The notes under the pieces: generated by a model | Seen by the model: only the letters and a program-made list of their open reading frames with translations | Told to the model about the DNA's origin: nothing | Database searches by the model: none | Source of the DNA: Syntrophales bacterium | GTDB lineage: Bacteria; Desulfobacterota; Syntrophia; Syntrophales; PHBD01 | Assembly: GCA_035363115.1 (NCBI GenBank) | Contig: DAOSEM010000001.1 | Span: 271,356 to 335,355 of the forward strand | DNA: 64,000 nucleotides | Direction of reading: 5' to 3' | Program-made: the position numbers and the translations under genes | Shown: piece by piece, positions 3,106 through 56,343 of the stretch | Layout: each line of letters opens with the position of its first letter | Numbering within the stretch: the first letter of the stretch is position 1

Positions 3106-4320
3106 TCACCGCCCGCTCTTGTCCGCCGTCGGTGCGGCTGCGTCTTTTGCCTTCCCGGCGTTGTTTTCGTCCTCGGCGACGAAGGGGACCGTCTTCACGG
3201 TGGCGCCGGGCCGTGCCTTCTGCATGCCCTCGACGACGACCTTCTCGCCCGCCGCCAGGCCGGAGGCGACAAGCCACTGGTCGCCGATGGCGCGGTCCGT
3301 CGTGATCATCCGCTGCTGGACTTTCCCTTCCTTATCCACGACCAGGACGAGCGGGTTTCCCTTGGGATCCCGTGACACTCCCTGCTGGGGGACGAGGATG
3401 GCCTGCCTGCGTACGCCTTCCTGCACCACCGCCCGGACGTACATGCCCGGCAGGAGGATCCCCTTCGGATTGGGAAAGACCGCCCGCAGGACGACCGAGC
3501 CGGTCGTCGGATCGACCGTGACGTCCCGGAACTGGAGGGTTCCCTCCAGGGGATAGGGCCTGCCGTCATCCAGGATGAGCCGCACCTTTCTCTGTCCGGC
3601 CCCGTTCGGGTCCAGGCGGCCCTCCTCGGTGCTCCGCCGCAGCCGCAGGAGTTCGGCTGTCGACTGGGGCACATCCACGTACATGGGATCCAGCCGCTGA
3701 ATGGTGGCCAGGGCCGCCGGCTGCTGGGCCGAGACGAGGGCGCCCTCGGTGACGCTGGATCGTCCGATGCGGCCCGAGATGGGTGCCGTGACGGAGGTGT
3801 ATTTCAGGTTGATCCGGGCGTTTTCGACCGTGGCTTTCCAGTACTGGACGTCCGCCTCCGCCTGTTTCAGGGCGGCCGAGGCGTCGTCGTAATCCTGCTG
3901 GCTGACGGCCTTGTCGGCCAGGAGTTCCTTCACGCGTTCGGCCCGTAAGCGAATCGCCGGCAGGTTGGCCTCGGATCGGGCCAGGGCGGCCCGGGCGTTG
4001 TCGAAGGCGGCCTGATACGTCGCCGGGTCGATCCGGTAGAGAACCTGTCCCGCCTTGACGTCGGCACCTTCCGTGAACAGCCGCTTCTGGACGATGCCTC
4101 CCACCTGGGGCCGCACCTCGGCGATCTGATGGGCGGATGTCCGGCCGGCCAGTTCCGTCGTGGTGGCCACCACCCGGGGCTGGATCGTCACGACGGCTAC
4201 CTCGGGCGGTCCGCCCTGCGGAGGCCCTCCCGCCGTCTGCTGCCCGCATCCGGCGGCGATCAGTACCCCCAGGAAGATTCCCACGACGGCTTTGTATCCG
4301 GCTCTTTTGAAAATCTGCAT
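3106..4320 (-). CDS. RND efflux periplasmic adaptor (membrane fusion protein), AcrA/MexA type lipoprotein
   Basis: ORF 3106..4464 trimmed to MQIFKRAGYKAVVGIFLGVLIAAGC (signal peptide plus lipobox Cys). Contains HlyD/AcrA-like coiled-coil and beta-barrel motifs (TAPISGRIG, VDVPQ, LLPGMYVRA). Confidence 0.9.
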   Translation of the reverse strand: MQIFKRAGYKAVVGIFLGVLIAAGCGQQTAGGPPQGGPPEVAVVTIQPRVVATTTELAGRTSAHQIAEVRPQVGGIVQKRLFTEGADVKAGQVLYRIDPATYQAAFDNARAALARSEANLPAIRLRAERVKELLADKAVSQQDYDDASAALKQAEADVQYWKATVENARINLKYTSVTAPISGRIGRSSVTEGALVSAQQPAALATIQRLDPMYVDVPQSTAELLRLRRSTEEGRLDPNGAGQRKVRLILDDGRPYPLEGTLQFRDVTVDPTTGSVVLRAVFPNPKGILLPGMYVRAVVQEGVRRQAILVPQQGVSRDPKGNPLVLVVDKEGKVQQRMITTDRAIGDQWLVASGLAAGEKVVVEGMQKARPGATVKTVPFVAEDENNAGKAKDAAAPTADKSGR

Positions 4321-4482
4321 GCCACACCTCGATGTCGTTACTCGCAAATCCCTCACCGCCCGCTTCCGGGCACGGAATGCATTGCTGAAAGACCTTCCGG
4401 AGACATATTCACGGAATGAATGTTCATTCTTTCCAGCATAAAAACCAGGGACAGATCTTCGCACCGCCTGCCCCGGCTTTCG

Positions 4483-15439: not shown

Positions 15440-16813
15440 GTGGGACCGAACGTGAAGATCATCATCGTCGGGGCCGGCGAGGTCGGCTACCACATCGCGA
15501 AGAAACTGTCGGAAGAGAAGCAGGACGTGGTGCTCATCGACAAGGATCCGGGCAAGATCCGGCGGATCGGCGAGAACCTGGATGTCCAGTCCTACCAGGG
15601 TTCCGGCACCAGCCCGCAGGTTCTCCGGGATTCCGGGATCGCGGATGCGGACATGCTGGTTGCAGCGACGGACAGCGACGAGGTGAACCTGATCTCCTGC
15701 CTCCTGGCCCGGAGCCTCAATCGCCACATGCTCAAGGTCGCCCGGGTGAAAAACGAGGAGTACCTCCGCGAGACGGATCTCTTCCAGAAGGAGCTTCTCG
15801 GAGTCGACCTGATCATCAGCCCCCGGATCATGATGGTGGAGACGATCCTGAACCTCATGAAGATTCCCGGGGCCTCCGAAGCGGTCGATTTCGTCGGCGG
15901 CAAGGTCAAGCTGATCGGATTTTTCGTGACGGACGACCTGCCCTTTTCGGGGCAGAAGCTGAGCGCGCTCCGTGGATTCGAGGGAAGAGCCCTGGTGGCG
16001 GCCATCGTCCGGGGGCACCGGATCCTGATCCCCAGCGGCGGAGACACGATCCAGCCCCACGACCTGGTCTACATGGCGGTCCGGGCGGATCACCTCGACG
16101 ACACCCTCGAACGGCTCAACCTGAAGGGGGGGCCCGTGAAGAACATCTTCATCGTCGGTGGCGGCGAGACGGGGTACGCCGTGGCCCGGGCCCTCGACGG
16201 CCGTGGCCTCAACGTCCGGATCCTGGACCATGACGGGGACCGCTGCAAGAAAATGGCGGCGACCCTGGACAAGGTCCTGGTCATCCGCGGCGACGGGACG
16301 GACCGCGACCTGCTCCGCGAGGAAAACGCCGGTGCCTCGGACCTGTTCATCGCCCTCACGGGCGACGAGGAGAGCAACGTCTTCATCTCCCTCCTCGCCA
16401 AGGGATTGGGCGCCCGCCGCACGATCACCCGGGTGAGCAAGCTCAGCTACATGCCCGTGGTCTCCGCCATGGGGCTCGACACGGTCCTGAATCCGCGGAT
16501 GGCGGCGGTTCGGGCGATTCTCCAGTACATCCGCCGGGGGCGGATCCTGTCGGTGACCCCCCTTCGGGAGGAGCAGGCCGAGGCCATCGAGGCGGAGGCC
16601 CTGGAGACCTCCGAGATCGTCCGCGCCCCCCTCTCTCGGGTCAAGTTCCCCAAGGGGGCGATCCTCGGGGCCATCGTGCGGGGGGAGGAGATCATCATCC
16701 CCCGGGGTGATACCGTCGTCAAACCGAAGGACCGGCTCATCATCTTCGCCATGCAGGACGTCGTCGCCCGGCTGGAAAAGCTCCTGACGGTGAAGCTGGA
16801 GTATTTTGAATGA
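15440..16813 (+). CDS. trkA: Trk potassium uptake system NAD-binding subunit TrkA
   Basis: Two RCK/KTN repeats (KIIIVGAGEVGYHIAKKL and NIFIVGGGETGYAVARAL). The true start may be the GTG at 15452, which has GGGGAGGGG upstream. Confidence 0.92.
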   Translation: MGPNVKIIIVGAGEVGYHIAKKLSEEKQDVVLIDKDPGKIRRIGENLDVQSYQGSGTSPQVLRDSGIADADMLVAATDSDEVNLISCLLARSLNRHMLKVARVKNEEYLRETDLFQKELLGVDLIISPRIMMVETILNLMKIPGASEAVDFVGGKVKLIGFFVTDDLPFSGQKLSALRGFEGRALVAAIVRGHRILIPSGGDTIQPHDLVYMAVRADHLDDTLERLNLKGGPVKNIFIVGGGETGYAVARALDGRGLNVRILDHDGDRCKKMAATLDKVLVIRGDGTDRDLLREENAGASDLFIALTGDEESNVFISLLAKGLGARRTITRVSKLSYMPVVSAMGLDTVLNPRMAAVRAILQYIRRGRILSVTPLREEQAEAIEAEALETSEIVRAPLSRVKFPKGAILGAIVRGEEIIIPRGDTVVKPKDRLIIFAMQDVVARLEKLLTVKLEYFE

Positions 16814-18258
16814 ACGGGCGGCTCATAGCCTACCTGCTTTCCATCCTCGTCCTCGACCTGGGCCTCTTTATGGTCCTGCCCGTCCTGGTCTCCCTCTGGT
16901 ACGGGGAGCCGTGCGCCCGGCAGCTGTTTCTCGCTGCGATCCTCACCGGATGCCTGGGCCTGGCCATGCGGGCCGCCTCGGGCCGGCCCGCCGACCGGTA
17001 CCTGAGCCACCGGGACGGAGTCGCCATTGTGACGGGAGGGTGGGTGCTGGCCGGCCTGGTGGCGACCCTGCCCTATCTCCTGACGGGGACCATCCCGGAT
17101 TTCACGGACGCCTACTTCGAGTGCATCTCCGGTTTCACCACCACGGGCTCCAGCATTTTCAGCAACGTCGAAGTTCTGCCGAGGGGCGTCCTCTTCTGGC
17201 GGAGCCTCACCCAGTGGCTCGGGGGCATGGGGATCATCGTCCTGTCCATCGCGATCCTTCCCTTCCTGGGGATCGGGGGGATGCAGCTCTACAAGGCGGA
17301 GACGCCCAGCCCCGTCGTGGACAAGCTGACGCCGCGGATCTCCGACACGGCCAGGGTCCTGTGGAAAGTATACGTCCTGCTGACGCTGATGCAGATTATC
17401 CTGCTCCTCTTCGGCGGCATGTCCCTCTTCGACGCCGTCTGCCACGCCTTCACGACGATGCCCACGGGCGGCTTTTCCACGAAGAATGCAAGCATCGCCG
17501 CCTATAACAGCGTCTATATCGAGGTCGTGGTGACCGTGTTCATGGTCCTGGCGGGGATGAACTTCGCCCTGCATTACCGGCTGCTCCGGGGAGATTTCCG
17601 TTCTGTCCGGAAAGATCCGGAGATCCGGGTCTATCTCCTCATTTTCGGAGTCCTGACGCTCCTGGTGGCGGTGGACCTTTTCGGCCGGACCTGCCCGTCG
17701 GCGACGCAGGCCCTCCGTTACGCCTCCTTCCAGGTGGCCTCGATCCTGACGACAACCGGCTATACCACGGCGGACTTCGAGCAGTGGCCCGCCTTTTCCC
17801 AGATCGTGCTGCTCCTGTGCATGTTCCTCGGCAGTATGGCCGGATCCACCGGCGGCGGCATCAAGACGCTCCGCCTGCTCCTGCTTGCCAAGCACGCCTA
17901 CCTCGAGATCGTCCGCGTAATCCATCCCCACGCCATGACCATCGTGAAACTCGGGAATGTCCCCGTCTCCCAGTCCGTCCTCCGCAGCGTCTGGGGATTT
18001 TTTATCCTCTTCATGGGCATCTTCGTCCTGGCGACGCTTGTCATGAGCGCCCTGGGAGTCGATTTTCTGACCTCCGTCTCTTCCGTGGCCTCCTGCCTGG
18101 GAAACGTGGGGCCCGGGTTGGGCGCCGTCGGGCCGATGGATAATTTCGGCGGCCTGCCGGCGGCGGGAAAGTGGGTGCTCATCGCCTGCATGCTCCTGGG
18201 GAGGCTGGAGATTTATACGGTATTGGTATTCCTGATGCCCCGCTTCTGGAAGGACTGA
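16810..18258 (+). CDS. trkH: Trk potassium uptake system membrane subunit TrkH
   Basis: ATGA overlap with trkA. Multi-TM protein with TrkH pore-loop motifs (ECISGFTTTGSSIF, TTMPTGGFST, LTTTGYTT, GSTGGGIKT). Confidence 0.92.
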   Translation: MNGRLIAYLLSILVLDLGLFMVLPVLVSLWYGEPCARQLFLAAILTGCLGLAMRAASGRPADRYLSHRDGVAIVTGGWVLAGLVATLPYLLTGTIPDFTDAYFECISGFTTTGSSIFSNVEVLPRGVLFWRSLTQWLGGMGIIVLSIAILPFLGIGGMQLYKAETPSPVVDKLTPRISDTARVLWKVYVLLTLMQIILLLFGGMSLFDAVCHAFTTMPTGGFSTKNASIAAYNSVYIEVVVTVFMVLAGMNFALHYRLLRGDFRSVRKDPEIRVYLLIFGVLTLLVAVDLFGRTCPSATQALRYASFQVASILTTTGYTTADFEQWPAFSQIVLLLCMFLGSMAGSTGGGIKTLRLLLLAKHAYLEIVRVIHPHAMTIVKLGNVPVSQSVLRSVWGFFILFMGIFVLATLVMSALGVDFLTSVSSVASCLGNVGPGLGAVGPMDNFGGLPAAGKWVLIACMLLGRLEIYTVLVFLMPRFWKD

Positions 18259-18411
18259 CGGGCTGCTGAAAAACAGCCGTCTGCGGCGTTTCCCTCCTCC
18301 TTCGCCATTCGACGTACCGAAAAGGGTACGACTCATGGCTCAGGATTTCGGGGGCCTTGCATCCGGGTATTTTTGAACAGCCCGCTACAGGCTTCCGGCA
18401 GGGATGTTCCA

Positions 18412-18447
18412 ATTGCTCCTCTGGGAACCCCCGGTCGCGCCCCCGCG
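18412..18447. repeat. Left arm of the perfect 36-bp inverted repeat bracketing the core module
   Basis: ATTGCTCCTCTGGGAACCCCCGGTCGCGCCCCCGCG is the exact reverse complement of 18740-18775. Confidence 0.95.
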
Positions 18448-18739
18448 GACGTCGGCTGGTAAATGGGTAAATAGGGACACTTCCCCTATATTTTCTCGTA
18501 ATGGTCGGTCCGGGGAGGGGGGCTTCCCGGAGCGCGAATAGCGGCTTTTTCGGGGCACCCTGCCGTCGCAGCGCAGCGCCCGCAAAGTCCTGTGTTTGAA
18601 CACCGTCCGGTGCGAGTTATGACTTTGCAGCGGAGCGAAAAGATGCAAAGGGAGCAGATTTGAAATCTGTCCCATACGCTTCTGAACGCAAGGGATGCCC
18701 CCTCCCTGTTCAAACGGAAGCTTTTTCCCGTCGTAATTT

Positions 18740-18775
18740 CGCGGGGGCGCGACCGGGGGTTCCCAGAGGAGCAAT
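18740..18775. repeat. Right arm of the perfect 36-bp inverted repeat (also the 5' arm of the U hairpin)
   Basis: CGCGGGGGCGCGACCGGGGGTTCCCAGAGGAGCAAT, lying 292 bp from the left arm. It also pairs imperfectly with 18846-18870. Confidence 0.95.
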
Positions 18776-18920
18776 CAGGAAGCGTTTCCAGGGCAGGGAG
18801 ATCCGATTTGCCGGCACCGGAAACAGGAAACGCTTCCGCGACGGCGGGAATCCCCGTGGCAGCCCCCGCGCCCCGGATGAATCTGCCGGCCGTGGGGGCT
18901 GATACAGGAGAGTCGTTGTT

Positions 18921-19889
18921 TCAGGCGTGGTTGCGGAGCTTCAGCTCCTGAGGGTGTGGGTTGAGATAAACCTGGTCTTTCAGGTATGGCTCGTCGAACT
19001 TCCGGACGTAGTGGCGGATCAGGGTGACCGGGACGATCAGCGGGATATCGCCCCGGCGGTAGTCGGTGATGACCTCCTGCAGCTCCTGCCGCTCGTTCGC
19101 GGAAAGCTGTTGCTTGAAATACCCCGCCATGTGCTGGAGGACATTGGCGTTCTTGGCCGGTGTAGCCTTGAGCTGGAGGGCCTCCGCCATGAGCGCCTCG
19201 TACCGGGTATACAGCTCGCCCGCTGGGATTGTTCCGGCCTGGGCCACGAGTTTTCCCATCTCACGGTAGTGCTTTTCGCTGTGGGCCAGGATGAAGAGCT
19301 TGTGGATGGAGTGAAACCTCACCAGGCGCGAGGGCTTTCGGCCCGCCGCGATCATTTCGCGCCAGCGCCGGCAGGCGAAGATCCGCTCGATGAAGTTCTC
19401 CCGGAGGACCGGGTCCTGGAGTCGCCCCTCTTCCTCCACCGGCAGGAGGGGAAAGCGCTCCATGAAGATCCGGGCAAAGATGCCGGAGCCCTTTTTGACT
19501 GCCTGGCCGCCCCCTTCCTGGAAGACGTTCACCCGCTCCATGCCGCTGGAAGGGGACCTGCTCTTGAAGACGAAGCCGCAGAGCCCTTCCTTCTCCAGCT
19601 CGGCCACGCGGCGGCCGGCCCAGGCCTCCATGCGTCCGGTGAGATCCTGCCTGGAGCGCGTGGTGACCAGGCGGGGCCTCGCCGTGTCGCCCTCCAGGTG
19701 CATCGACTCCCGGGGAACCCCCAGCCCGCACTCCACCTCGGGACAGACGGGAACGTACTCCACATGGGCTCCGAGGGTGTCCCGCAGGTAGCGGTCCAGC
19801 TTGTGGCCGCCGTCGTAGCGGACGTTTTCTCCCAGGAGACAGGCGCTGATGCCGAGACGGATCCTGCCCGTAGAATCTTGATTTCCCAT
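18921..19889 (-). CDS. DUF523 (TudS-like) / DUF1722 (YbgA-like) fusion protein
   Basis: N-terminus RLGISACLLGENVRYDGGHK...PVCPEVECGLGVPRE (Cys-rich DUF523). C-terminal half RLVRFHSIHKLFILAHSEKHYREMGKL...LQHMAGYFK is YbgA-like. Family assignment is from memory. Confidence 0.7.
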   Translation of the reverse strand: MGNQDSTGRIRLGISACLLGENVRYDGGHKLDRYLRDTLGAHVEYVPVCPEVECGLGVPRESMHLEGDTARPRLVTTRSRQDLTGRMEAWAGRRVAELEKEGLCGFVFKSRSPSSGMERVNVFQEGGGQAVKKGSGIFARIFMERFPLLPVEEEGRLQDPVLRENFIERIFACRRWREMIAAGRKPSRLVRFHSIHKLFILAHSEKHYREMGKLVAQAGTIPAGELYTRYEALMAEALQLKATPAKNANVLQHMAGYFKQQLSANERQELQEVITDYRRGDIPLIVPVTLIRHYVRKFDEPYLKDQVYLNPHPQELKLRNHA

Positions 19890-31155: not shown

Positions 31156-32883
<1,728 letters not shown>

Positions 32884-32891
32884 GCGTATAT

Positions 32892-49389: not shown

Positions 49390-50460
49390 ATGTTGAAACC
49401 CAGAGGTAATCGTATCGAACGCGTCCGTTTCATTGCCTGCCTTCTCGTGATTCCTGTGTTTCTTGCGGCCGGCTGCAGCGGTGGCAAAAGCGCGAGCGAG
49501 CAGGTGAGCGCCCCCGTCCCCGTGGCCGTGAAAACAATCGAGAAAACGGACGTCGAAAAGGTCATCTCCGTCACTGGGAACATCGAAGGGCTGAGAACCG
49601 CGCGCCTGGGCTTCCTGGTGGCCGGGAAGGTCAACTACATCGCCGCGAGGGAAGGGGAGACGGTCCGGGCGGGGCAGCTCCTGGCCAGCCTCGACCCGGA
49701 GAGCTACCGGATCGGCAAGGAGTTGGCCGACGCCGCCGTCGCCCAAATCGAGGACGAGCACCGGCGACTGACCCTGATGCACGAGCGGAAGAGCCTCTCG
49801 GACGGCGACTACGCGAAGATCAACAGCGGTCTGCGGCAGGCCCGGGCGCAGCAGCGGCTGCAGGCGAAAAACCTGGCGGACACGAGGCTGTACACGCCTT
49901 TCAGCGGGATTCTCCTGAAGCGCGGGGTCGAAGTCGGGGAGATCATCGGCACGGGCATGCCCGTCTTCGCGGTCTCCGACATCCACGTCGTGAAGGTCAA
50001 CGCCTCTGTTCCCGAGACGGACCTGCAGTTCATCCGGATGGGCTCCGAGGCCCGGGTGCGCATTTCCTCCCTCGATTCCGAGTATGCCGGGAAGGTCGTG
50101 GAGATCGGCTCCCTCGCGGAAGCGACGACCCGGGCGTTTCCCGTGAAGATCGAAGTCGGGAACCCCGATCTGCTCATGCGTCCGGGCATGACGGCGGACA
50201 TCCGGATCCAGTCCGGAAAGAAGACGGAGATCATGGCCGTGCCCGGGGAAGCGGTCATGCGAGACCCGGACAATGCGGCCTATGTCTTCGTCGTTGATGA
50301 AAACCGGAAACAGGCCTTCAAGCGCAGGATTTCCCTCGGGGAGATCCGTGAAAACGGCATCGCCGTGACCTCCGGCCTCGCTCCGGGCGAGCAGGTCGTG
50401 GTCGGCGGCCAGCATAAGCTGAATGACGGAACTCCCGTGACAGTCAAGCAGGCACCATGA
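49390..50460 (+). CDS. RND efflux periplasmic adaptor (MFP) lipoprotein
   Basis: Lipobox LAAGC. Also LYTPFSGILLKRGVEVGE and MRPGMTADIRI. ATGA-type overlap with the downstream RND start. Confidence 0.88.
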   Translation: MLKPRGNRIERVRFIACLLVIPVFLAAGCSGGKSASEQVSAPVPVAVKTIEKTDVEKVISVTGNIEGLRTARLGFLVAGKVNYIAAREGETVRAGQLLASLDPESYRIGKELADAAVAQIEDEHRRLTLMHERKSLSDGDYAKINSGLRQARAQQRLQAKNLADTRLYTPFSGILLKRGVEVGEIIGTGMPVFAVSDIHVVKVNASVPETDLQFIRMGSEARVRISSLDSEYAGKVVEIGSLAEATTRAFPVKIEVGNPDLLMRPGMTADIRIQSGKKTEIMAVPGEAVMRDPDNAAYVFVVDENRKQAFKRRISLGEIRENGIAVTSGLAPGEQVVVGGQHKLNDGTPVTVKQAP

Positions 50461-53400
50461 ACTTCGTCAAGAAATCCCTGAAGTATCCCCAGGTCACCGT
50501 CTCCGTCCTCCTCATCCTGTTTGCCGTCGGCACCTTCTCCCTCCTGGAGATGCCGCGGCGCGAGGACGCCAAGATCCGTATCCGGGTGGGGCAGGTCATT
50601 GCCTTCTACCCCGGGGCCGATTCGCTCCAGGTAGAGGAGCAGGTCACGAAGAAGCTGGAGCAGTACCTGTTCCAGTATGAAGAGGTCCGGAAAGAGAAAA
50701 CGACCTCCACCACCCGCGACGGCGTCGTCCTCATCAACGTCTGGCTGAACGACAGCGTGAAAGACCTGGACGTCTTCTGGAGCAAGCTGAACCACCAGTT
50801 GCTCGTCCAGAAGGCCGTCAGCCTGCCGCCGGGTGTCCAGGGACCCATCGTGAATTTCGAGTTCGGCGACGTGGAGGCGCTCCTGATCGCCATTGAAATG
50901 GACGATCCCGACTATGCCCGGATGAGCGACTGTGCCCGGAAGCTGGAAGACAGCCTCCGGACCCTCAAGTCCGTCTCGAAGATCAGGCGCATCGGCGGCC
51001 AGAAGGAGCAGATCCTCATCTCGGCGGACAGCGCGAAGCTGGAGCGATACGGGATGACCTTCGCGACGGCCATGATGGTCCTGCAGTCGCAGAACACCAT
51101 CGGCCCCGCAGGCGACCTTTCGACGCCGGACTCGCAGGTGCGCCTTTACACCAGGGGATATTACCGGACGGAGACGGAGATCGGCGACCAGATCATCGGC
51201 CTGGCCAGGACCGGCGAGACGGTGCGCCTGAGGGACGTGGCGGCGATCCAGAGGCAGTACCAGGAGCCGGCCTCCCGGGCCACGGTCAACGGCAGGAACA
51301 CCATGCTCCTGGCCGTGCAGATGCATGAAGGCCGCAACATCGTCGAGTTCGGGAAAGAGGTGGACCGGAAGCTCGCCGAAACATCGAGGCTCCTCCCGGC
51401 GGGCGTCAAGCTGACCACGATCGTCAACCAGCCCGCCGTGGTCGCGAAAAACGTCGGCCATTTCCTTCGCGAGTTCATGCTGGCCATCGTCGCGGTCATC
51501 CTGGTCATCGTGCTGCTCCTCCCGTTCCGCGTGGCCGCCGTGGCTGCCATGGCCATCCCCATGACCGTCGCCGTGACATTCGGCGTCATGCACGCCCTGG
51601 GCATCGAGCTGCACCAGGTTTCCCTGGCCGCCCTGATCGTGGCGCTGGGCATGGTCGTGGACGACGCCGTCGTCGTTGCCGACAACTACGTGGAGCTGCT
51701 GGACGGGGGAGTGGACCGGAAGACCGCCGCCTGGCGCAGCGCCTCCGACCTCGTGGTGCCCATCCTGGCGGCGACGGTGACCATCATTGCAGCCTTCCTG
51801 CCGATGACGCTTCTGACGGGCATGGTCGGCGAGTTCATCATCGCCCTGCCCCTGACCGTCTCCATCGCCCTGGCGGCTTCCTTTTTCGTCGCCATGGTCC
51901 TGACGCCGCTCCTCTGCCTGACGTTCATCCGGAAGGGCCTTCACGACCGGGAAGAAACCGGGAAGACGAGCGGGAAAAAAGACCGGTCCCTTCTCGACTT
52001 CATGCAGCTTGGATACGACCGGGCCATCGCCTGGTGCATGGCCCACTCCCGGGTGTCGATCTCCGCCTGCCTCGTCATCATCCTGCTGGCGGTGGCCCTG
52101 TACCAGGCCATCCCCCAGAAATTCTTTCCGGCGGCGGAGCGAAACCAGTTTATCGTGGAGCTGTGGATGCCCACGGGCACGAAGCTGGAGAAGACCGGGC
52201 AGGCCGTCCGGAAGATCGAGGGCATGCTGAAAAACGACAGGCGGGTTGTGAACTATGCCGGCTTCATCGGCATGGGGGCGCCGCGCTTTTATTACAATTT
52301 CATTCCCGAGCCGCCGGGCGCCAATTTTGCGCAGGTGATCGTGAACACGAACACGGACGAGGAGGCGAAGCAACTCCAGCGTGAGTTGAACGCCCGGGTG
52401 GACGGAGAGGTCCCCGAAGGGAGGGTCCAGGCCAGGCTCATGCAGCAGGGAGTCCCCGCCGCCGCATCCGTCGAGGTCCGGATCGTCGGCGACGACATCG
52501 CGACCCTGAAAAGCGCCGGCCGCCAGGTGGAGGACATTCTCCGGGAGACCCGCGCCGCCGCCTTCATCCGCTCCGACTTCCGGGAGGACTATTACGGCGT
52601 CTCCGTCCGGCTCCTGGACAATGCCGCCCGCATGGGATTCACCACGGAAAGCGTTGCCAAGTCCATTTACGCCGGCTTCACCGGTGCGCCCGTGTCGACC
52701 CTCTACGAAGGCAACACGCCCGTGGAGATCCTGCTGCGCCTGGACGAGCGGAGCCGGGGCAGCTTCGACCACCTCAGGAACATGTACCTGCCGTCTCCCG
52801 TAACCGGTGCGGCGGTGCCGCTTCGCCAGATCGCGACGCTGGAGCCGCAGTGGCATCACGGCCGGATCCGGCACCTCAATGGTCTCCGGACGCTGACGGT
52901 TCAATGCGAGCCGGCGGAGGGCATCCTGGCCTCGCAGGTCCTGAAAAAGGCGCGGCCGCAGATATCCAGAATCGCGCTCCCACCGGGATTCCGGATCGAA
53001 TATGGCGGGGAATACGAAAACCAGAGGGAGACCTTTTCGGAGATGCTGGTGGTGCTGGCCATCAGCATTGTGCTCATCTTTCTCGTTCTCCTGTTCCAGT
53101 TCCGCAACCTGAAGCAGTCCTTCATCGTCATGCTGACGATTCCCCTGAGCATGTTCGGGGCGTTTCTGGGACTGCTGATCACGGGCAATCCCTTCGGATT
53201 CACCGCCTTTGTCGGCCTGATCAGCCTGTCGGGCATCGTGGTCCGGAACGCCATCATCCTCATCGACCATGCCAACGAGCTCTGCCGCGGCGGCGCTTCC
53301 ATCCGGACGGCCGCCCTGGAATCAGGAAAAAGAAGGCTGCGGCCCATCTTCCTGACGGCCAGCGCGGCGGCGATCGGCGTCCTTCCCATGATCCTTTCCG

Positions 53401-54956
53401 GGTCGCCCCTGTGGAGCCCTCTGGCCAGCGTGATCGCCGTGGGCATCATGCTCTCCATGGTTGTCTCGCTCCTCCTGGTGCCGGTTCTCTACGCCGCCAT
53501 GATCAAGCCTTCCGGCGTCCTGGCGAAGTCCCCGGCAAGCCTTGAAAGGCCCGCCCATACAGGCCTGCGAAAACAAGTCGCTTCCCTGCTCCTGATCGCC
53601 CTGATTCTATTCCCGGCCGGTGCCGGCGCCCAGGACGGCCCGGAGCGGCTGAACCTGCAGAAGGTTACGGAACTGGCCGTCCGGAACAACCGGCTGCTCC
53701 ATATCAGGCAGCTCCAGGTGGACGAAAAGCGGCAGAAAGTGAGCGAAAGCAGGGTCAAGTATTTCCCCGCCGTCGTGGTCGGCGGCTCGTATCAGTACAG
53801 CAGCGTGGCCGGCACGGTCGATCTCAGCCAGGGATTTCTCGGCACGGTTTCCACGGGCTCGGTCCATCTGCCGGTCCCCTCGGTGGACCTGGCCCTGGAT
53901 CTGAACAGTTACGATGTTGCCAGCGCAGGAGTCCGCTTCTATCAGCCCGTCTCGCAGATCCCGAAGATCCGGTCTGGCGTTGAAATTTCCAAGGCGGACC
54001 TCGCGATTTCGGAAATCGAACAGGCCAAGGCGATCATGCAGGTGAAGCAGGCCGCGGAGAAGCTCTATTTCGGCCTGCTGATCCTCCAGAAGCAGAAGGA
54101 AGAGGCACAGATCAAGCGGACCCTGGCGAAACGGAAGCTTCACGACGTCGAGAGCGCCGTCCTGGCCGGCAAGACGACGCCGTCCAGCCTGGCGGGATTG
54201 AAGGCGGCCGTGGCCGACGAGGAGCAGAACCTTCTGAAGATCCGGATCCAGATCGACGACTATTCCGCCGATCTGAGGCACCTGATCGGCCTGCCGTCCT
54301 CCACTCCGTTCGTCCTTGATCCGGTAACCTTCGATGACACCATATACGAACTCATGCCGGTGGATGCCCTGGCCCGGGAGGCGCAGACCGGCAACAGCGA
54401 TCTGAAAGCGGCGGCCGTTCAGAAAGCCAAGGCCGAGCACGCGATAGACGCCAGCCGGTTCAGCTACCTGCCGGACTTCGGCGTGATGGGCGGCTATACC
54501 TGGCAGGAGGGCAATGCGCACTTCCGGCAGAGCGCGATCCATTCCGGGTTCGATCCGGGGTGGAACGTCCGGGACGCCTTCATCGGCGTCTCTCTCCAGT
54601 GGAACATCCAGGACGCCGTCTCCAACGTGTACGTGAAGAGGCAGCGCCTCGCCCTGAAAAGGCAGGCCGAAGAGAACCTGGCCAACACGCTGGAGCAGGT
54701 GAATGCGGACATCGAAAAGGCGCACCGGAGGGCCTCCCAGGCGGTCGAGCTGATTTCCGTCGCCCGGAAGGTCGTCGACTACCGCCGGGAGGATTACCGG
54801 ATCCAGAAGGACCGGTACGAGGCCGGGCTGAGTCTCGAAGCGGACTGTCTCACGGCGAAGGCGGCCCTCATGAAGGCCGAGTCGGACCTCTTTGCCGCGC
54901 AGCTGAATTACCGGATCGTCGTGACGGACCTGCAACTTCTGTCGGGGAGGCTCTAG
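50457..54956 (+). CDS. RND efflux permease continuing in frame into a TolC-like outer-membrane factor domain (1499-aa ORF)
   Basis: The first ~1020 aa form a 12-TM AcrB-family protein (MNFVKKSLKYPQVTVSVLLILFAVG ... LLLVPVLYAAMIKP). Then comes the basic/hydrophobic segment LRKQVASLLLIALILFPAGAGA-QD. The last ~440 aa carry two OEP repeats (LNLQKVTELAVRNNRLLH..., ALAREAQTGNSDLKAAAVQ...). There is no stop between the parts. Confidence 0.8.
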   Translation: MNFVKKSLKYPQVTVSVLLILFAVGTFSLLEMPRREDAKIRIRVGQVIAFYPGADSLQVEEQVTKKLEQYLFQYEEVRKEKTTSTTRDGVVLINVWLNDSVKDLDVFWSKLNHQLLVQKAVSLPPGVQGPIVNFEFGDVEALLIAIEMDDPDYARMSDCARKLEDSLRTLKSVSKIRRIGGQKEQILISADSAKLERYGMTFATAMMVLQSQNTIGPAGDLSTPDSQVRLYTRGYYRTETEIGDQIIGLARTGETVRLRDVAAIQRQYQEPASRATVNGRNTMLLAVQMHEGRNIVEFGKEVDRKLAETSRLLPAGVKLTTIVNQPAVVAKNVGHFLREFMLAIVAVILVIVLLLPFRVAAVAAMAIPMTVAVTFGVMHALGIELHQVSLAALIVALGMVVDDAVVVADNYVELLDGGVDRKTAAWRSASDLVVPILAATVTIIAAFLPMTLLTGMVGEFIIALPLTVSIALAASFFVAMVLTPLLCLTFIRKGLHDREETGKTSGKKDRSLLDFMQLGYDRAIAWCMAHSRVSISACLVIILLAVALYQAIPQKFFPAAERNQFIVELWMPTGTKLEKTGQAVRKIEGMLKNDRRVVNYAGFIGMGAPRFYYNFIPEPPGANFAQVIVNTNTDEEAKQLQRELNARVDGEVPEGRVQARLMQQGVPAAASVEVRIVGDDIATLKSAGRQVEDILRETRAAAFIRSDFREDYYGVSVRLLDNAARMGFTTESVAKSIYAGFTGAPVSTLYEGNTPVEILLRLDERSRGSFDHLRNMYLPSPVTGAAVPLRQIATLEPQWHHGRIRHLNGLRTLTVQCEPAEGILASQVLKKARPQISRIALPPGFRIEYGGEYENQRETFSEMLVVLAISIVLIFLVLLFQFRNLKQSFIVMLTIPLSMFGAFLGLLITGNPFGFTAFVGLISLSGIVVRNAIILIDHANELCRGGASIRTAALESGKRRLRPIFLTASAAAIGVLPMILSGSPLWSPLASVIAVGIMLSMVVSLLLVPVLYAAMIKPSGVLAKSPASLERPAHTGLRKQVASLLLIALILFPAGAGAQDGPERLNLQKVTELAVRNNRLLHIRQLQVDEKRQKVSESRVKYFPAVVVGGSYQYSSVAGTVDLSQGFLGTVSTGSVHLPVPSVDLALDLNSYDVASAGVRFYQPVSQIPKIRSGVEISKADLAISEIEQAKAIMQVKQAAEKLYFGLLILQKQKEEAQIKRTLAKRKLHDVESAVLAGKTTPSSLAGLKAAVADEEQNLLKIRIQIDDYSADLRHLIGLPSSTPFVLDPVTFDDTIYELMPVDALAREAQTGNSDLKAAAVQKAKAEHAIDASRFSYLPDFGVMGGYTWQEGNAHFRQSAIHSGFDPGWNVRDAFIGVSLQWNIQDAVSNVYVKRQRLALKRQAEENLANTLEQVNADIEKAHRRASQAVELISVARKVVDYRREDYRIQKDRYEAGLSLEADCLTAKAALMKAESDLFAAQLNYRIVVTDLQLLSGRL

Positions 54957-55083: not shown

Positions 55084-56289
55084 CTACCGATCTTTGCCGG
55101 CAGGGCCTGTGCCTTTTTTCGGGGATGCGGCAATCCGTTGAAATTCCTGTTCCAGACCACTCAGTCCAGTCGCGCTGATGTTCGTATCCAGCGGGTAGGT
55201 TTCTTTGCCTGGATAGACAACCCACAGATGGGCCAGTCCCAGTTCCCGGAAAGCCGAGTGCATGGAGGCGCTGACAGCCGGTGCTTCCGCATATTTGAAT
55301 TCCACTCCCCAGGGTTTTCCCCGGGCATGAAAGAGAAGATCCAACTCTCCCCCGGTGTGTACGGCCCAAAAGAAAACCTCCTCATCGTGGAGCCCTAAAT
55401 GTCGGATCACCTGCTCCAGGGCAAACCCCTCCCAGGAAGCACCCAGGCGGGGATGATAGAGGAGATCGCTTTCATCCCGGACGGTGAGCAAGGTGTGGAG
55501 GAGGCCGGAGTCGCGGAAATAGATTTTCGGCCTTTTCACGAGCCGTTTCGTTGTGTTGTAGAACCAGGGCTGGAGCTGCCGGATCAGGAAGGTGCCCGTG
55601 AGAATGTCCAGATAATGGCGGACCGCCGTGTCGGAAACGCCCAGGCTGCGCCCGAGTTCCGATACGTTCAGGACCTGACCGTGATAGTGGGACAGCATCG
55701 TCCAGAAACGGCGGAGTTGGAGAGCGGGGACCCGGATTCCCAGATTGGGAACGTCTCTCTCCAGGAAGGTCCTGACAAAGTCTTCTCTCCATGACAGGGA
55801 AGCATCCTCGCTTTCCGCCAGGAAAGAGCGGGGAAATCCGCCCCGGACCCACAACCGGCGGTACTCTTCAGGTTTAACGTCCCGGATGGCAAACCCGCCC
55901 AACTCGACGAAGGAGATGCGTCCGGCCAGGGTCTCGGAGCCTTGAGCAATCAAGTCCCTGGAAGCGCTGCCGAGTATGAGGAACCTTCTGGAGACGTCGC
56001 GGTCGACCAGCACCCGGAGAGCAGGGAAAAGATCGGGGCGGCGTTGAATTTCGTCGATGATGACCAGCCCCTCAAGGGGTTCCAGGGTCAACATGGGATT
56101 GGACAGACGCTCGACGACCCTCGGGTCCTCACAGTCGAAATGATGAAACGCCTTCTCCCCGAGGCGATGGGCATACTGCAGGGCAAGGGTGGTCTTGCCG
56201 CATTGACGGGGACCGAGAAGGGCGACGACGGGGACGCCGCGCAGTTTTTCCTCGATTGTCTGTAACTCTTTTACTCTTATGATTTCCAT
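55084..56289 (-). CDS. AAA-family ATPase with C-terminal DUF4143 domain
   Basis: Walker A LLGPRQCGKTT and Walker B LVIIDEIQ. The C-terminal half is typical of DUF4143 proteins (YFRDSGLLHTLL). Start taken at MEIIRV (56287-56289); the ORF track starts at 56307. Confidence 0.8.
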   Translation of the reverse strand: MEIIRVKELQTIEEKLRGVPVVALLGPRQCGKTTLALQYAHRLGEKAFHHFDCEDPRVVERLSNPMLTLEPLEGLVIIDEIQRRPDLFPALRVLVDRDVSRRFLILGSASRDLIAQGSETLAGRISFVELGGFAIRDVKPEEYRRLWVRGGFPRSFLAESEDASLSWREDFVRTFLERDVPNLGIRVPALQLRRFWTMLSHYHGQVLNVSELGRSLGVSDTAVRHYLDILTGTFLIRQLQPWFYNTTKRLVKRPKIYFRDSGLLHTLLTVRDESDLLYHPRLGASWEGFALEQVIRHLGLHDEEVFFWAVHTGGELDLLFHARGKPWGVEFKYAEAPAVSASMHSAFRELGLAHLWVVYPGKETYPLDTNISATGLSGLEQEFQRIAASPKKGTGPAGKDR

Positions 56290-56300
56290 TGGATGCAATA

Positions 56301-56343
56301 GAACCATGAAATTTCTATTTCTGCAAGAGAAATTTCATGGTTC
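56301..56343. repeat. Perfect 16-bp inverted repeat immediately upstream of the ATPase gene
   Basis: GAACCATGAAATTTCT (56301-56316), an 11-nt loop, then AGAAATTTCATGGTTC (56328-56343). The local segment is AT-rich. Confidence 0.9.

Follow-up and report, generated by a model that had tools for sequence, protein, structure and literature searches.

A perfect 36-bp inverted repeat downstream of trkH as the likely by-product of a mosaic of hairpin-forming intergenic repeats in one Syntrophaceae lineage

The REP/BIME elements of enterobacteria and pseudomonads, which are moved by RAYT Y1 transposases, consist of units of 20-40 nt with a GTAG head. CGTC REPs form stems of 8-9 bp with loops of 4-5 nt, bear the signature of a CGTC head and a CCA tail, and have no dedicated transposase (Di Nocera et al. 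2013, PMC3733652). Longer imperfect intergenic palindromes, of ~127-170 nt, are represented by the ERIC/IRU and YPAL-type elements, while MITEs (Correia/NEMIS) and the modular BOX elements are non-coding repeats that can be arranged in tandem or nested. Palindromes of ~60-140 nt also serve as integron attC sites (e.g. the Vibrio VCRs), which are recognised as folded single strands, and in invertons (fimS, hin, Bacteroides promoter switches) inverted repeats enclose a few hundred base pairs. The hairpin repeat family reported here, named H, has its closest known counterparts in REP/BIME mosaics, ERIC-type long palindromes and bacterial MITEs. It appears to be new to the literature, where searches returned no account of this family, nor any of repeats in Syntrophaceae, Smithella or Syntrophus. 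The 364-bp structure analysed below, located in the gap that separates trkH from a DUF523/DUF1722 gene, likely arose as a by-product when such non-autonomous, hairpin-forming intergenic repeats accumulated into a mosaic in one Syntrophaceae lineage.

The structure was found in a 64-kb window, by which we mean the whole stretch of 64,000 nt of Syntrophales DNA that was analysed. Direct comparison reveals that positions 18412-18447 (ATTGCTCCTCTGGGAACCCCCGGTCGCGCCCCCGCG) are the exact reverse complement of 18740-18775 (36 nt, 100% complementary), with 292 nt between the two arms. Searched with up to 3 mismatches, the 36-mer has three occurrences in the window, where 100 dinucleotide-preserving shuffles give an expectation of 0.00. 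Both results confirm the perfect inverted repeat described in an earlier sequence-only reading of this DNA. The local alternative pairing proposed there is likewise confirmed, with positions 18740-18764 of the right arm pairing with 18846-18870 over 25 nt at 76% complementarity, including the claimed 9-bp and 11-bp helices, and three arm-like sequences do exist at this locus. In silico folding bears out that the long-range and local helices are mutually exclusive. When 18740-18872 is folded alone it forms the local hairpin (-78.6 kcal/mol, z = -5.7), and when 18405-18880 is folded whole (-246.9 kcal/mol, z = -8.9) the minimum-energy structure uses the long-range helix. The flanking genes, trkH (16810-18258, plus strand) and the DUF523/DUF1722 gene (18921-19889, minus strand), are convergent, with both 3' ends facing the repeat across a 662-nt gap in which two independent annotations call no gene.

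Three repeats make up this locus (copy 1) and a second one in the window (copy 2), both of them intergenic: H, a ~133-nt hairpin repeat; the core, a ~190-nt palindromic repeat; and A, a 124-nt MITE-like repeat. In copy 1, A, an orphan arm, the palindromic core and a complete inverted H form a mosaic. Element A (18260-18383, plus strand) has ~14-nt terminal inverted repeats, GGGCTGCTGAAAAA and TTTTTGAACAGCCC, and begins 2 nt past the trkH stop codon. It is joined to the left arm by a conserved junction, GCTACAGGCTTCCGGCAGGGATGTTCCA (18384-18411, plus strand), which precedes the arm also at five loci in related genomes (L004, L020, L028, L090 and L123); in fact, 18257-18456 of the window is 95% identical to 1341-1540 of L123. 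The left arm (18412-18447, plus strand) is an orphan copy of the H arm without the inner stem-loop. With A directly next to the trkH stop codon, it also lacks its own partner arm, so that the right arm is the only complement available to it.

The junction between the left arm and the core (18448-18506, plus strand) carries an insertion of ~45 nt with a direct GTCGG on either side and a small A/T-flanked hairpin at 18468-18497. This insertion is common only to the window and L078 and is absent from the 18 other core copies aligned. A terminator scan of both copies returned the small hairpin, at 18471-18489, as its sole terminator-like match. The core itself (18513-18706, plus strand) is an imperfect palindrome with an inner hairpin, GCAAAGTC..GACTTTGC, and in copy 1 it holds a window-specific 20-nt hairpin insertion at about 18651-18673. 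Core copies differ by single-nucleotide indels, which speaks against an ORF. The complete H follows at 18740-18872 on the minus strand. It comprises the right arm (18740-18775, minus strand), which is the exact complement of the left arm, an inner stem-loop (18778-18837) in which a perfect 12-bp stem (18778-18789 with 18826-18837) closes a variable loop, and the partner arm GCGACGGCGGGAATCCCCGTGGCAGCCCCCGCGCC (18838-18872). The latter is the third arm of the sequence-only reading and pairs with the right arm in the two helices given above.

Copy 2 (32358-32883) occupies the gap between queA and tgt (32311-32891). It begins with a complete H (32358-32490, plus strand) in the order partner arm, inner stem-loop and arm, followed at 32491-32750 (plus strand) by a 68-nt insertion with direct CCCCGCGGA on either side and the core, and it ends with a second, inverted copy of A (32765-32883, minus strand). 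The arm that had been reported here is present, at 32455-32490 (35/36 identical) rather than at 32458-32492. Alignment of the two copies yields three blocks: 18407-18647 matches 32450-32695 in the same orientation, while 18740-18872 and 18261-18382 match 32490-32358 and 32883-32765, respectively, in inverted orientation. Within the first block, the core part (18511-18647 with 32559-32695) is 93% identical. Copy 2 had been read as a switch locked in one state; its layout is instead the commonest long architecture in the family.

Alignment of related copies identifies the 36-nt arm as the conserved 3' arm of the dispersed H repeat. Read on the arm strand, H consists of the partner arm GGCGCGGGGGCTGYCACGGGGRYTCCCGCCGTCGCG, an inner stem of 10-12 bp with a variable loop of ~35 nt, and YNA followed by the arm, of which the outer end is ATTGCTCC. 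The partner arm is a separately conserved module with a consensus of its own in at least 55 copies, so the view that the third arm of copy 1 has drifted away from the other two does not hold. From an alignment of 55 copies of H, RNAalifold recovers the consensus hairpin; 96.2% of cells in the specified structure are paired, as are 98.2% of those in the inner helix. In this inner helix, 5 of the 12 pairs change on both sides, with 75 two-sided cells against a single one-sided cell, and all changes are Watson-Crick only. The covariation exceeds that of 500/500 shuffles and of all slid controls. At least 10 versions of the inner stem occur (e.g. GAAGCGTTTCC, AAAACGTTTCC, GAGACTTTTCC, GAGAATTTTCC and GACATTTTTTCC), each with its exact complement opposite. 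The unpaired motifs ATTGCTCCTCT and GCCGTCGCG hardly vary. The outer helices have strand-biased mismatches, 40 A.C on the arm strand (G.T or G.U on the other strand) versus 7 G.T, a bias that stems mostly from two subfamily polymorphisms and so represents few independent events.

A smaller unit is nested within this anatomy. The last ~20 nt of the arm and the first ~22 nt of the partner arm, when adjacent, form a small hairpin of ~57 nt (~55-60 nt), which occurs in solo copies and also lies on either side of the central ~95 nt of H. In four elements (L042, L030, L010 and L006), the loops of the flanking small hairpins are identical or nearly so within an element and different between elements, a pattern that suggests duplication of the small hairpin in situ. 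The core follows the T-variant subfamily of H; 23 core copies were aligned, and a consensus fold of 19 of them has 61 pairs, 4 with compensatory changes. Element A recurs at numerous related loci, as tandem copies in L060 and L114 and within the inner loop of H in L043 and L123. The fullest form of the family (L123 and L133) is symmetric and spans ~750-870 nt: a terminator-like hairpin, CGGATTTSAAATCCG, with a T-rich tract, then H, a segment composed of a unit labelled X and the core, an inverted H, and an A-rich tract with a hairpin.

We searched for the family with a degenerate arm pattern, which matched 91 stretches of a species-representative genome collection. Five related MAGs labelled Syntrophaceae or Deltaproteobacteria, together with two probably misbinned contigs, account for 72 of these (8-kb blocks), with 25 blocks each in PPR_0392 and binchicken_co20_342, 10 in HGW-19 and 5 in each of the two others. 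The remaining 19 are chance matches in GC-rich genomes without any other module. A metagenome scan added 28 further stretches on contigs of up to 784 kb, and collections of plasmids and phages gave no match to the elements. The matched loci and the window together hold 77 arm copies with at most 6 mismatches. Among the loci collected and the window, the exact 36-mer is present in 21 copies, of which 19 lie beyond the window, and its one-base C-variant (GGCCGCG) occurs 19 times. The identity of the two window arms is therefore family-wide and needs no conversion specific to the pair; the recent conversion or selection on the perfect pair that had been proposed is not supported, given the exact 36-mer at 19 loci in other genomes.

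H is found alone, in tandem with a period of ~148 nt (L055, L027, L073 and L108), joined to the core, which is the commonest long form, and in rare symmetric H-core-H' composites (L015, L043, L048, L074, L123 and L133). Module maps reveal that most arms are single. The element lay between genes in 39 of the 45 cases scored with crude gene calls, several copies start 3-15 nt past a stop codon, and many of the H-bearing stretches are located at contig ends.

Comparison of the same gene gaps in relatives places the structure in time. In relatives at about 80-83% amino-acid identity, the gap between trkH and the DUF523/DUF1722 gene measures 68-183 nt. At 80% identity (L104 and L105) it is 68 nt long and holds no full repeat unit, only a stretch like the first ~40 nt of A; on a contig at 79% identity (P0007) it is 110 nt; and in PPR_0392 (L103), at 83% identity, its 183 nt hold only A and a partial A. 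At ~95% nucleotide identity (L114, and also L060 and L062), the gap measures ~680 nt, in the order trkH, A, A, partial A, H, core, partner-arm fragment and gene, compared with A, orphan arm, core and inverted H in the 662 nt of the window. The core of this ~95% relative has the same orientation as in the window, and the right arm is absent. Similarly, the queA-tgt gap of PPR_0392 (L084) is ~160 nt long and contains only a truncated H at the same site. Judged by these differences, the inverted-repeat structure accreted recently and in a lineage-specific manner, and it does not represent a conserved device for regulation.

Related elements do hold the core in both orientations. The core is joined to the left arm in the window and to the opposite arm in L123, despite the 95% identity of the stretch with A, junction and arm, and 18412-18647 of the window aligns with 1889-1661 of L123, reversed, at 86.6%. 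In L015, L048, L133 and L123, the core is bordered by the H with a T-rich inner stem and X by the AAACG-type H; L074 shows the reverse. A polymorphism in the arm (GGGAA/GGAAA) stays with the outer H, and the crossover therefore falls in the inner 20-30 nt of the arm. Relative to an orthologous upstream gene (85-92% identity), the core unit points one way in L043 and the other way in L028, the far side being cut by a contig end. The simplest reading of both orientations is probably a rare inversion between arms over evolutionary time, for which the predicted inverted-state junction of copy 1 would read ...GATGTTCCA, the arm, and then AAATTACGACGGG. Alternatively, the modules may have been re-assembled independently, the loci compared being paralogous or cut by a contig end. 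We note that a perfect match of 36 bp is close to the shortest on which RecA-dependent exchange can operate.

Whether such an inversion is programmed is a separate matter. The arms are perfect, the order of repeat, short segment and repeat is that of a switch, and the crossover maps inside the arm in relatives that hold the internal segment in both orientations against like flanks; a site-specific recombinase, of the kind that the sequence-only reading had in mind, could then flip 18448-18739 between the 36-bp arms and alter nearby expression. We regard such a programmed inverton as very unlikely. No Pfam domain of a recombinase, integrase or transposase is present in any called gene of the 64-kb window, where the Pfam matches are all to housekeeping functions (efflux pumps, TrkAH, pyrimidine synthesis, RecO, UvrC, SecDF, Tgt, QueA etc.) and one ORF has no match. 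A sigma-70 scan returned no promoter-like site in 18100-19000, which includes the segment, or in copy 2; the flanking genes converge, so that nothing lies downstream to be driven; the arms belong to a dispersed repeat rather than a locus-specific site; and relatives lack the structure in the same gap. The region 18100-19000 is present in four assemblies, each from a different sample, at 99.9-100% identity (one of them from 18277), and all show one orientation, as consensus sequences in which a minority inversion would be invisible. Two Logan assemblies break inside element A, and the locus-specific right junction had 0 matches in a metagenome scan of its own, in a collection evidently without the source samples. 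A broader version, in which the arms and the small hairpin are recombination sites throughout the family for a trans-acting, structure-specific enzyme that spreads H by duplicating its hairpin target and flips the core-X segment, we consider unlikely; if true, each genome would hold dozens of invertible loci, with orientation setting the transcribed strand of symmetric elements bracketed by bidirectional terminator-like hairpins, and the window locus would be a partly decayed member. Also very unlikely is a single 364-bp MITE with the 36-bp arms as terminal inverted repeats for a transposase. Perfect terminal repeats, a size in the MITE range, an intergenic site and the lack of coding capacity fit such an element, but its flanks (..TGTTCCA and CAGGAAG..) share no direct repeat, and no target-site duplication is definable for H or for the 364-bp unit. 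Moreover, the unit does not recur: loci with inverted arms measure 286-421 bp between outer arm ends and differ in content, most arms are single, and conservation runs past the arms into the inner stem and partner arm of H, so that the arms are not the ends of an element.

At the RNA level, the competition between long-range and local helices could constitute a conformational switch, a terminator or a stabiliser of transcript 3' ends, in a cis-acting or stand-alone structured RNA. The very stable predicted folds, the long-range helix in the minimum-energy structure, the covarying stems of H and the core, the strand-asymmetric mismatches (A.C over G.T on the arm strand), the start of several copies just after stop codons, and, in both window copies, the stronger fold on the upstream gene's sense strand are all in keeping with such an RNA, which we nevertheless hold to be quite unlikely. 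A search of Rfam 15 gave no match in the whole window at gathering score and, at permissive thresholds, two chance-level matches in 18100-19000. The inner stem covaries by Watson-Crick pairs, and G-U intermediates are almost absent, a pattern more characteristic of DNA hairpins; the sigma-70 scans of both copies gave no promoter-like site, and the hairpin at 18471-18489 alone resembles a terminator. Orientation relative to flanking genes is mixed (18 same, 8 opposite, 12 convergent, 7 divergent), in a survey that used crude GC3-based gene calls and mis-called known genes (e.g. 18921-19889), which makes the 18:8 bias untrustworthy. The long-range helix is found in few family members and therefore cannot be the selected feature. 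More generally, the arms could serve a host function, as a DNA- or RNA-binding site or in the protection or termination of transcript 3' ends, in line with their near-invariance across genomes whose flanking genes differ by 5-20% and with the strict Watson-Crick covariation; an RNA-level role in 3'-end protection or termination is possible but unsupported. Readings as attC sites, CRISPR-like elements or group II or retron-type elements were dropped, with their defining sites, arrays and associated genes absent.

We therefore return to the mosaic of hairpin-forming repeats as the likely origin of the structure. The core is flanked by the complete minus-strand H (18740-18872) on one side and by A with its orphan arm (18260-18447) on the other, which leaves two arms in inverted orientation. 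Their perfect identity reflects the strong conservation of every arm in the family, and the third arm is the ordinary intramolecular partner of the right arm. We infer that the family spreads and is homogenised by a trans-acting enzyme encoded outside the window, and that this enzyme probably recognises folded single-stranded DNA, because there is almost no sequence variation in the arms and in the unpaired ATTGCTCCTCT and GCCGTCGCG, whereas all that the inner stem preserves is its Watson-Crick pairing, and also because of the strand asymmetry and the duplication of hairpins. New units would tend to land in or beside existing hairpins and so build a nested mosaic. The inverted arms, in turn, may act as substrates for occasional inversion of the intervening DNA, which would leave the core in either orientation among relatives. 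Inversion has no apparent regulatory output in the window. Copy number and the differences between orthologous loci suggest that the family is mobile. An all-against-all comparison of 3376 ORFs from ~0.6 Mb of loci returned only repeat-spanning ORFs and ordinary orthologues and no autonomous partner, and neither a transposase nor a RAYT-type enzyme or recombinase tied to the family was found beside the repeats in the loci examined.

In practice, annotating the perfect inverted repeat in the window as a phase-variation switch or a riboswitch-like element would be a mistake, and the repeat mosaic explains why short-read assemblies break at these loci in this clade. The family is well suited to study, with its near-invariant arms and unpaired motifs, a variable centre that changes only by Watson-Crick pairs, the duplication of the ~57-nt hairpin, and paralogues in both orientations. 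Should a hairpin-reading enzyme be found in Syntrophaceae, the few known hairpin-directed mobile systems would gain another member; if there is no such enzyme, the family would illustrate cleanly how palindromic repeats evolve in concert in slow-growing syntrophs.

Against the known systems, the likeness to invertons is geometric only, with inverted repeats around a few hundred base pairs and both orientations among related copies; here, the arms are a dispersed repeat, and the window contains no cognate recombinase, no sigma-70-like promoter in the segment and no gene to regulate. Likewise, H resembles integron attC sites in structure only, as an imperfect palindrome with conserved ends, a variable but paired centre and strand asymmetry. 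However, its consensus lacks the RYYYAAC and GTTRRRY core sites, and its copies are scattered among housekeeping genes instead of forming cassette arrays by an integrase. MITEs and BOX elements share with the present repeats their non-coding nature, terminal inverted repeats and modular, tandem and nested arrangement. The MITE type best fits element A and those small hairpin insertions that have short direct repeats on either side; for H and the 364-bp unit, no target-site duplication or parent insertion sequence was found. With ERIC/IRU and YPAL-type elements, the family has in common its long imperfect intergenic palindromes, insertions at fixed internal sites and the occupation of different loci in related species, but there is no sequence relationship, and here the palindrome centre is hypervariable yet strictly paired and the repeats are nested with other families. 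The inner stem of H is preceded by CGTC and followed by a CCA tail, as in CGTC REPs; this is a resemblance only, since the H stem is 10-12 bp long, has a loop of ~35 nt and sits within a larger hairpin.

REP/BIME mosaics differ in unit length, their units being shorter than those of the small hairpin (~55-60 nt), H (~133 nt) and the core (~190 nt), and in their GTAG head, which is absent here, where the arms are nearly invariant across species. In other respects the correspondence is broad. The repeats are high-copy, with at least 25 element-bearing 8-kb blocks in each of two MAGs, and their units alternate, as small hairpin, a module labelled M and small hairpin, in tandem, as H with the core, and as H-core-H' with nested A and small hairpins. 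Like REP/BIME, they are GC-rich and intergenic, often lie just past stop codons, alternate in orientation, form mosaics with other short motifs, conserve their stems as structure, break assemblies and act as substrates for recombination.

Full-length members of the family are bracketed by a terminator-like hairpin (GGRGNRCGGATTTSAAATCCGYNCC), inverted copies of which lie on both sides and are accompanied by T-rich or A-rich tracts, pointing inward (e.g., at 1200-2100 in L123 and 9200-9950 in L133, two related stretches carrying the repeat). The same hairpin is also present upstream and downstream of many copies in which H, the dispersed ~133-nt hairpin repeat, is joined to the ~190-nt palindromic core. 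Together, the terminator-like hairpins and H form terminal inverted repeats some 100-230 nt long. In the window, this hairpin has only one relative, a small one at 18651-18673.

In four other loci, the H centre (~95 nt) carries a small hairpin of ~57 nt on each side: L042 (about 4260-4470, minus strand), L030 (187-400), L010 (3830-4050) and L006 (6880-7100). Each small hairpin consists of CCCCCGGCCGCGCCCCCGCG, a loop of ~18 nt and then GGCGCGGGGGCTGTCACGGG; the loops are the same on both sides within one element and unlike from element to element. This paired arrangement looks like a target-site duplication of an entire hairpin or, alternatively, like a tandem or rolling-circle product with 1.4 units of 148 nt.

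At the arm-to-core junction, both window copies contain short insertions at the same place that differ in sequence. The insertion in copy 1 (18448-18506) is bounded by the short direct repeats GTCGG...GTCGG, and that in copy 2 (32491-32558) by CCCCGCGGA...CCCCGCGGA. These direct-repeat-bounded insertions bear the signature of very small mobile units entering a pre-existing repeat.

Comparison of L074 (5777-5909) with L061 (878-1011) provides an orthologous site in two species, with flanks 79-81% identical. The H arms are the same, while the inner stems read AAAACG/CGTTTT versus GAAGCG/CGCTTC, with the changes compensated. This difference would reflect either co-evolution of the stem in place or replacement of the unit via conversion from another copy.

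Genuine H repeats are also present on two contigs binned elsewhere, L068 (Spirochaetota bin JBFZER010000206) and L021 (Rhodobacterales bin LUYO01000055), of which L021 has orthologues in the Syntrophaceae loci L058, L065 and L083. Both contigs are probably misbinned Syntrophaceae contigs, and the H repeat could therefore serve as a binning marker.

Elsewhere in the window, a single 1499-aa ORF (50457-54956, plus strand) encodes both a complete RND inner-membrane pump domain (ACR_tran, residues 6-1014) and, further on, an outer-membrane factor domain (OEP, residues 1304-1497). Provided that no frame or assembly artefact is involved, this would be an unusual RND/OEP fusion. A DUF4143/AAA_14 ATPase gene (55084-56307, minus strand) may be acquired DNA, given its noticeably lower third-position GC (0.67, versus 0.8-0.9 in its neighbours).

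Element A, the 124-nt MITE-like repeat, occurs in the window at 18260-18383 and 32765-32883. A stretch similar to its first ~40 nt is already present in the 68-nt ancestral gap of L104, a relative with the same gene neighbours. L103 (3452-3634) has one full unit and a partial 5' unit, and L114 (1162-1508) carries two full units and one partial in tandem, a pattern also seen in L060. A unit count of "n plus a fraction" is shared by element A and H.
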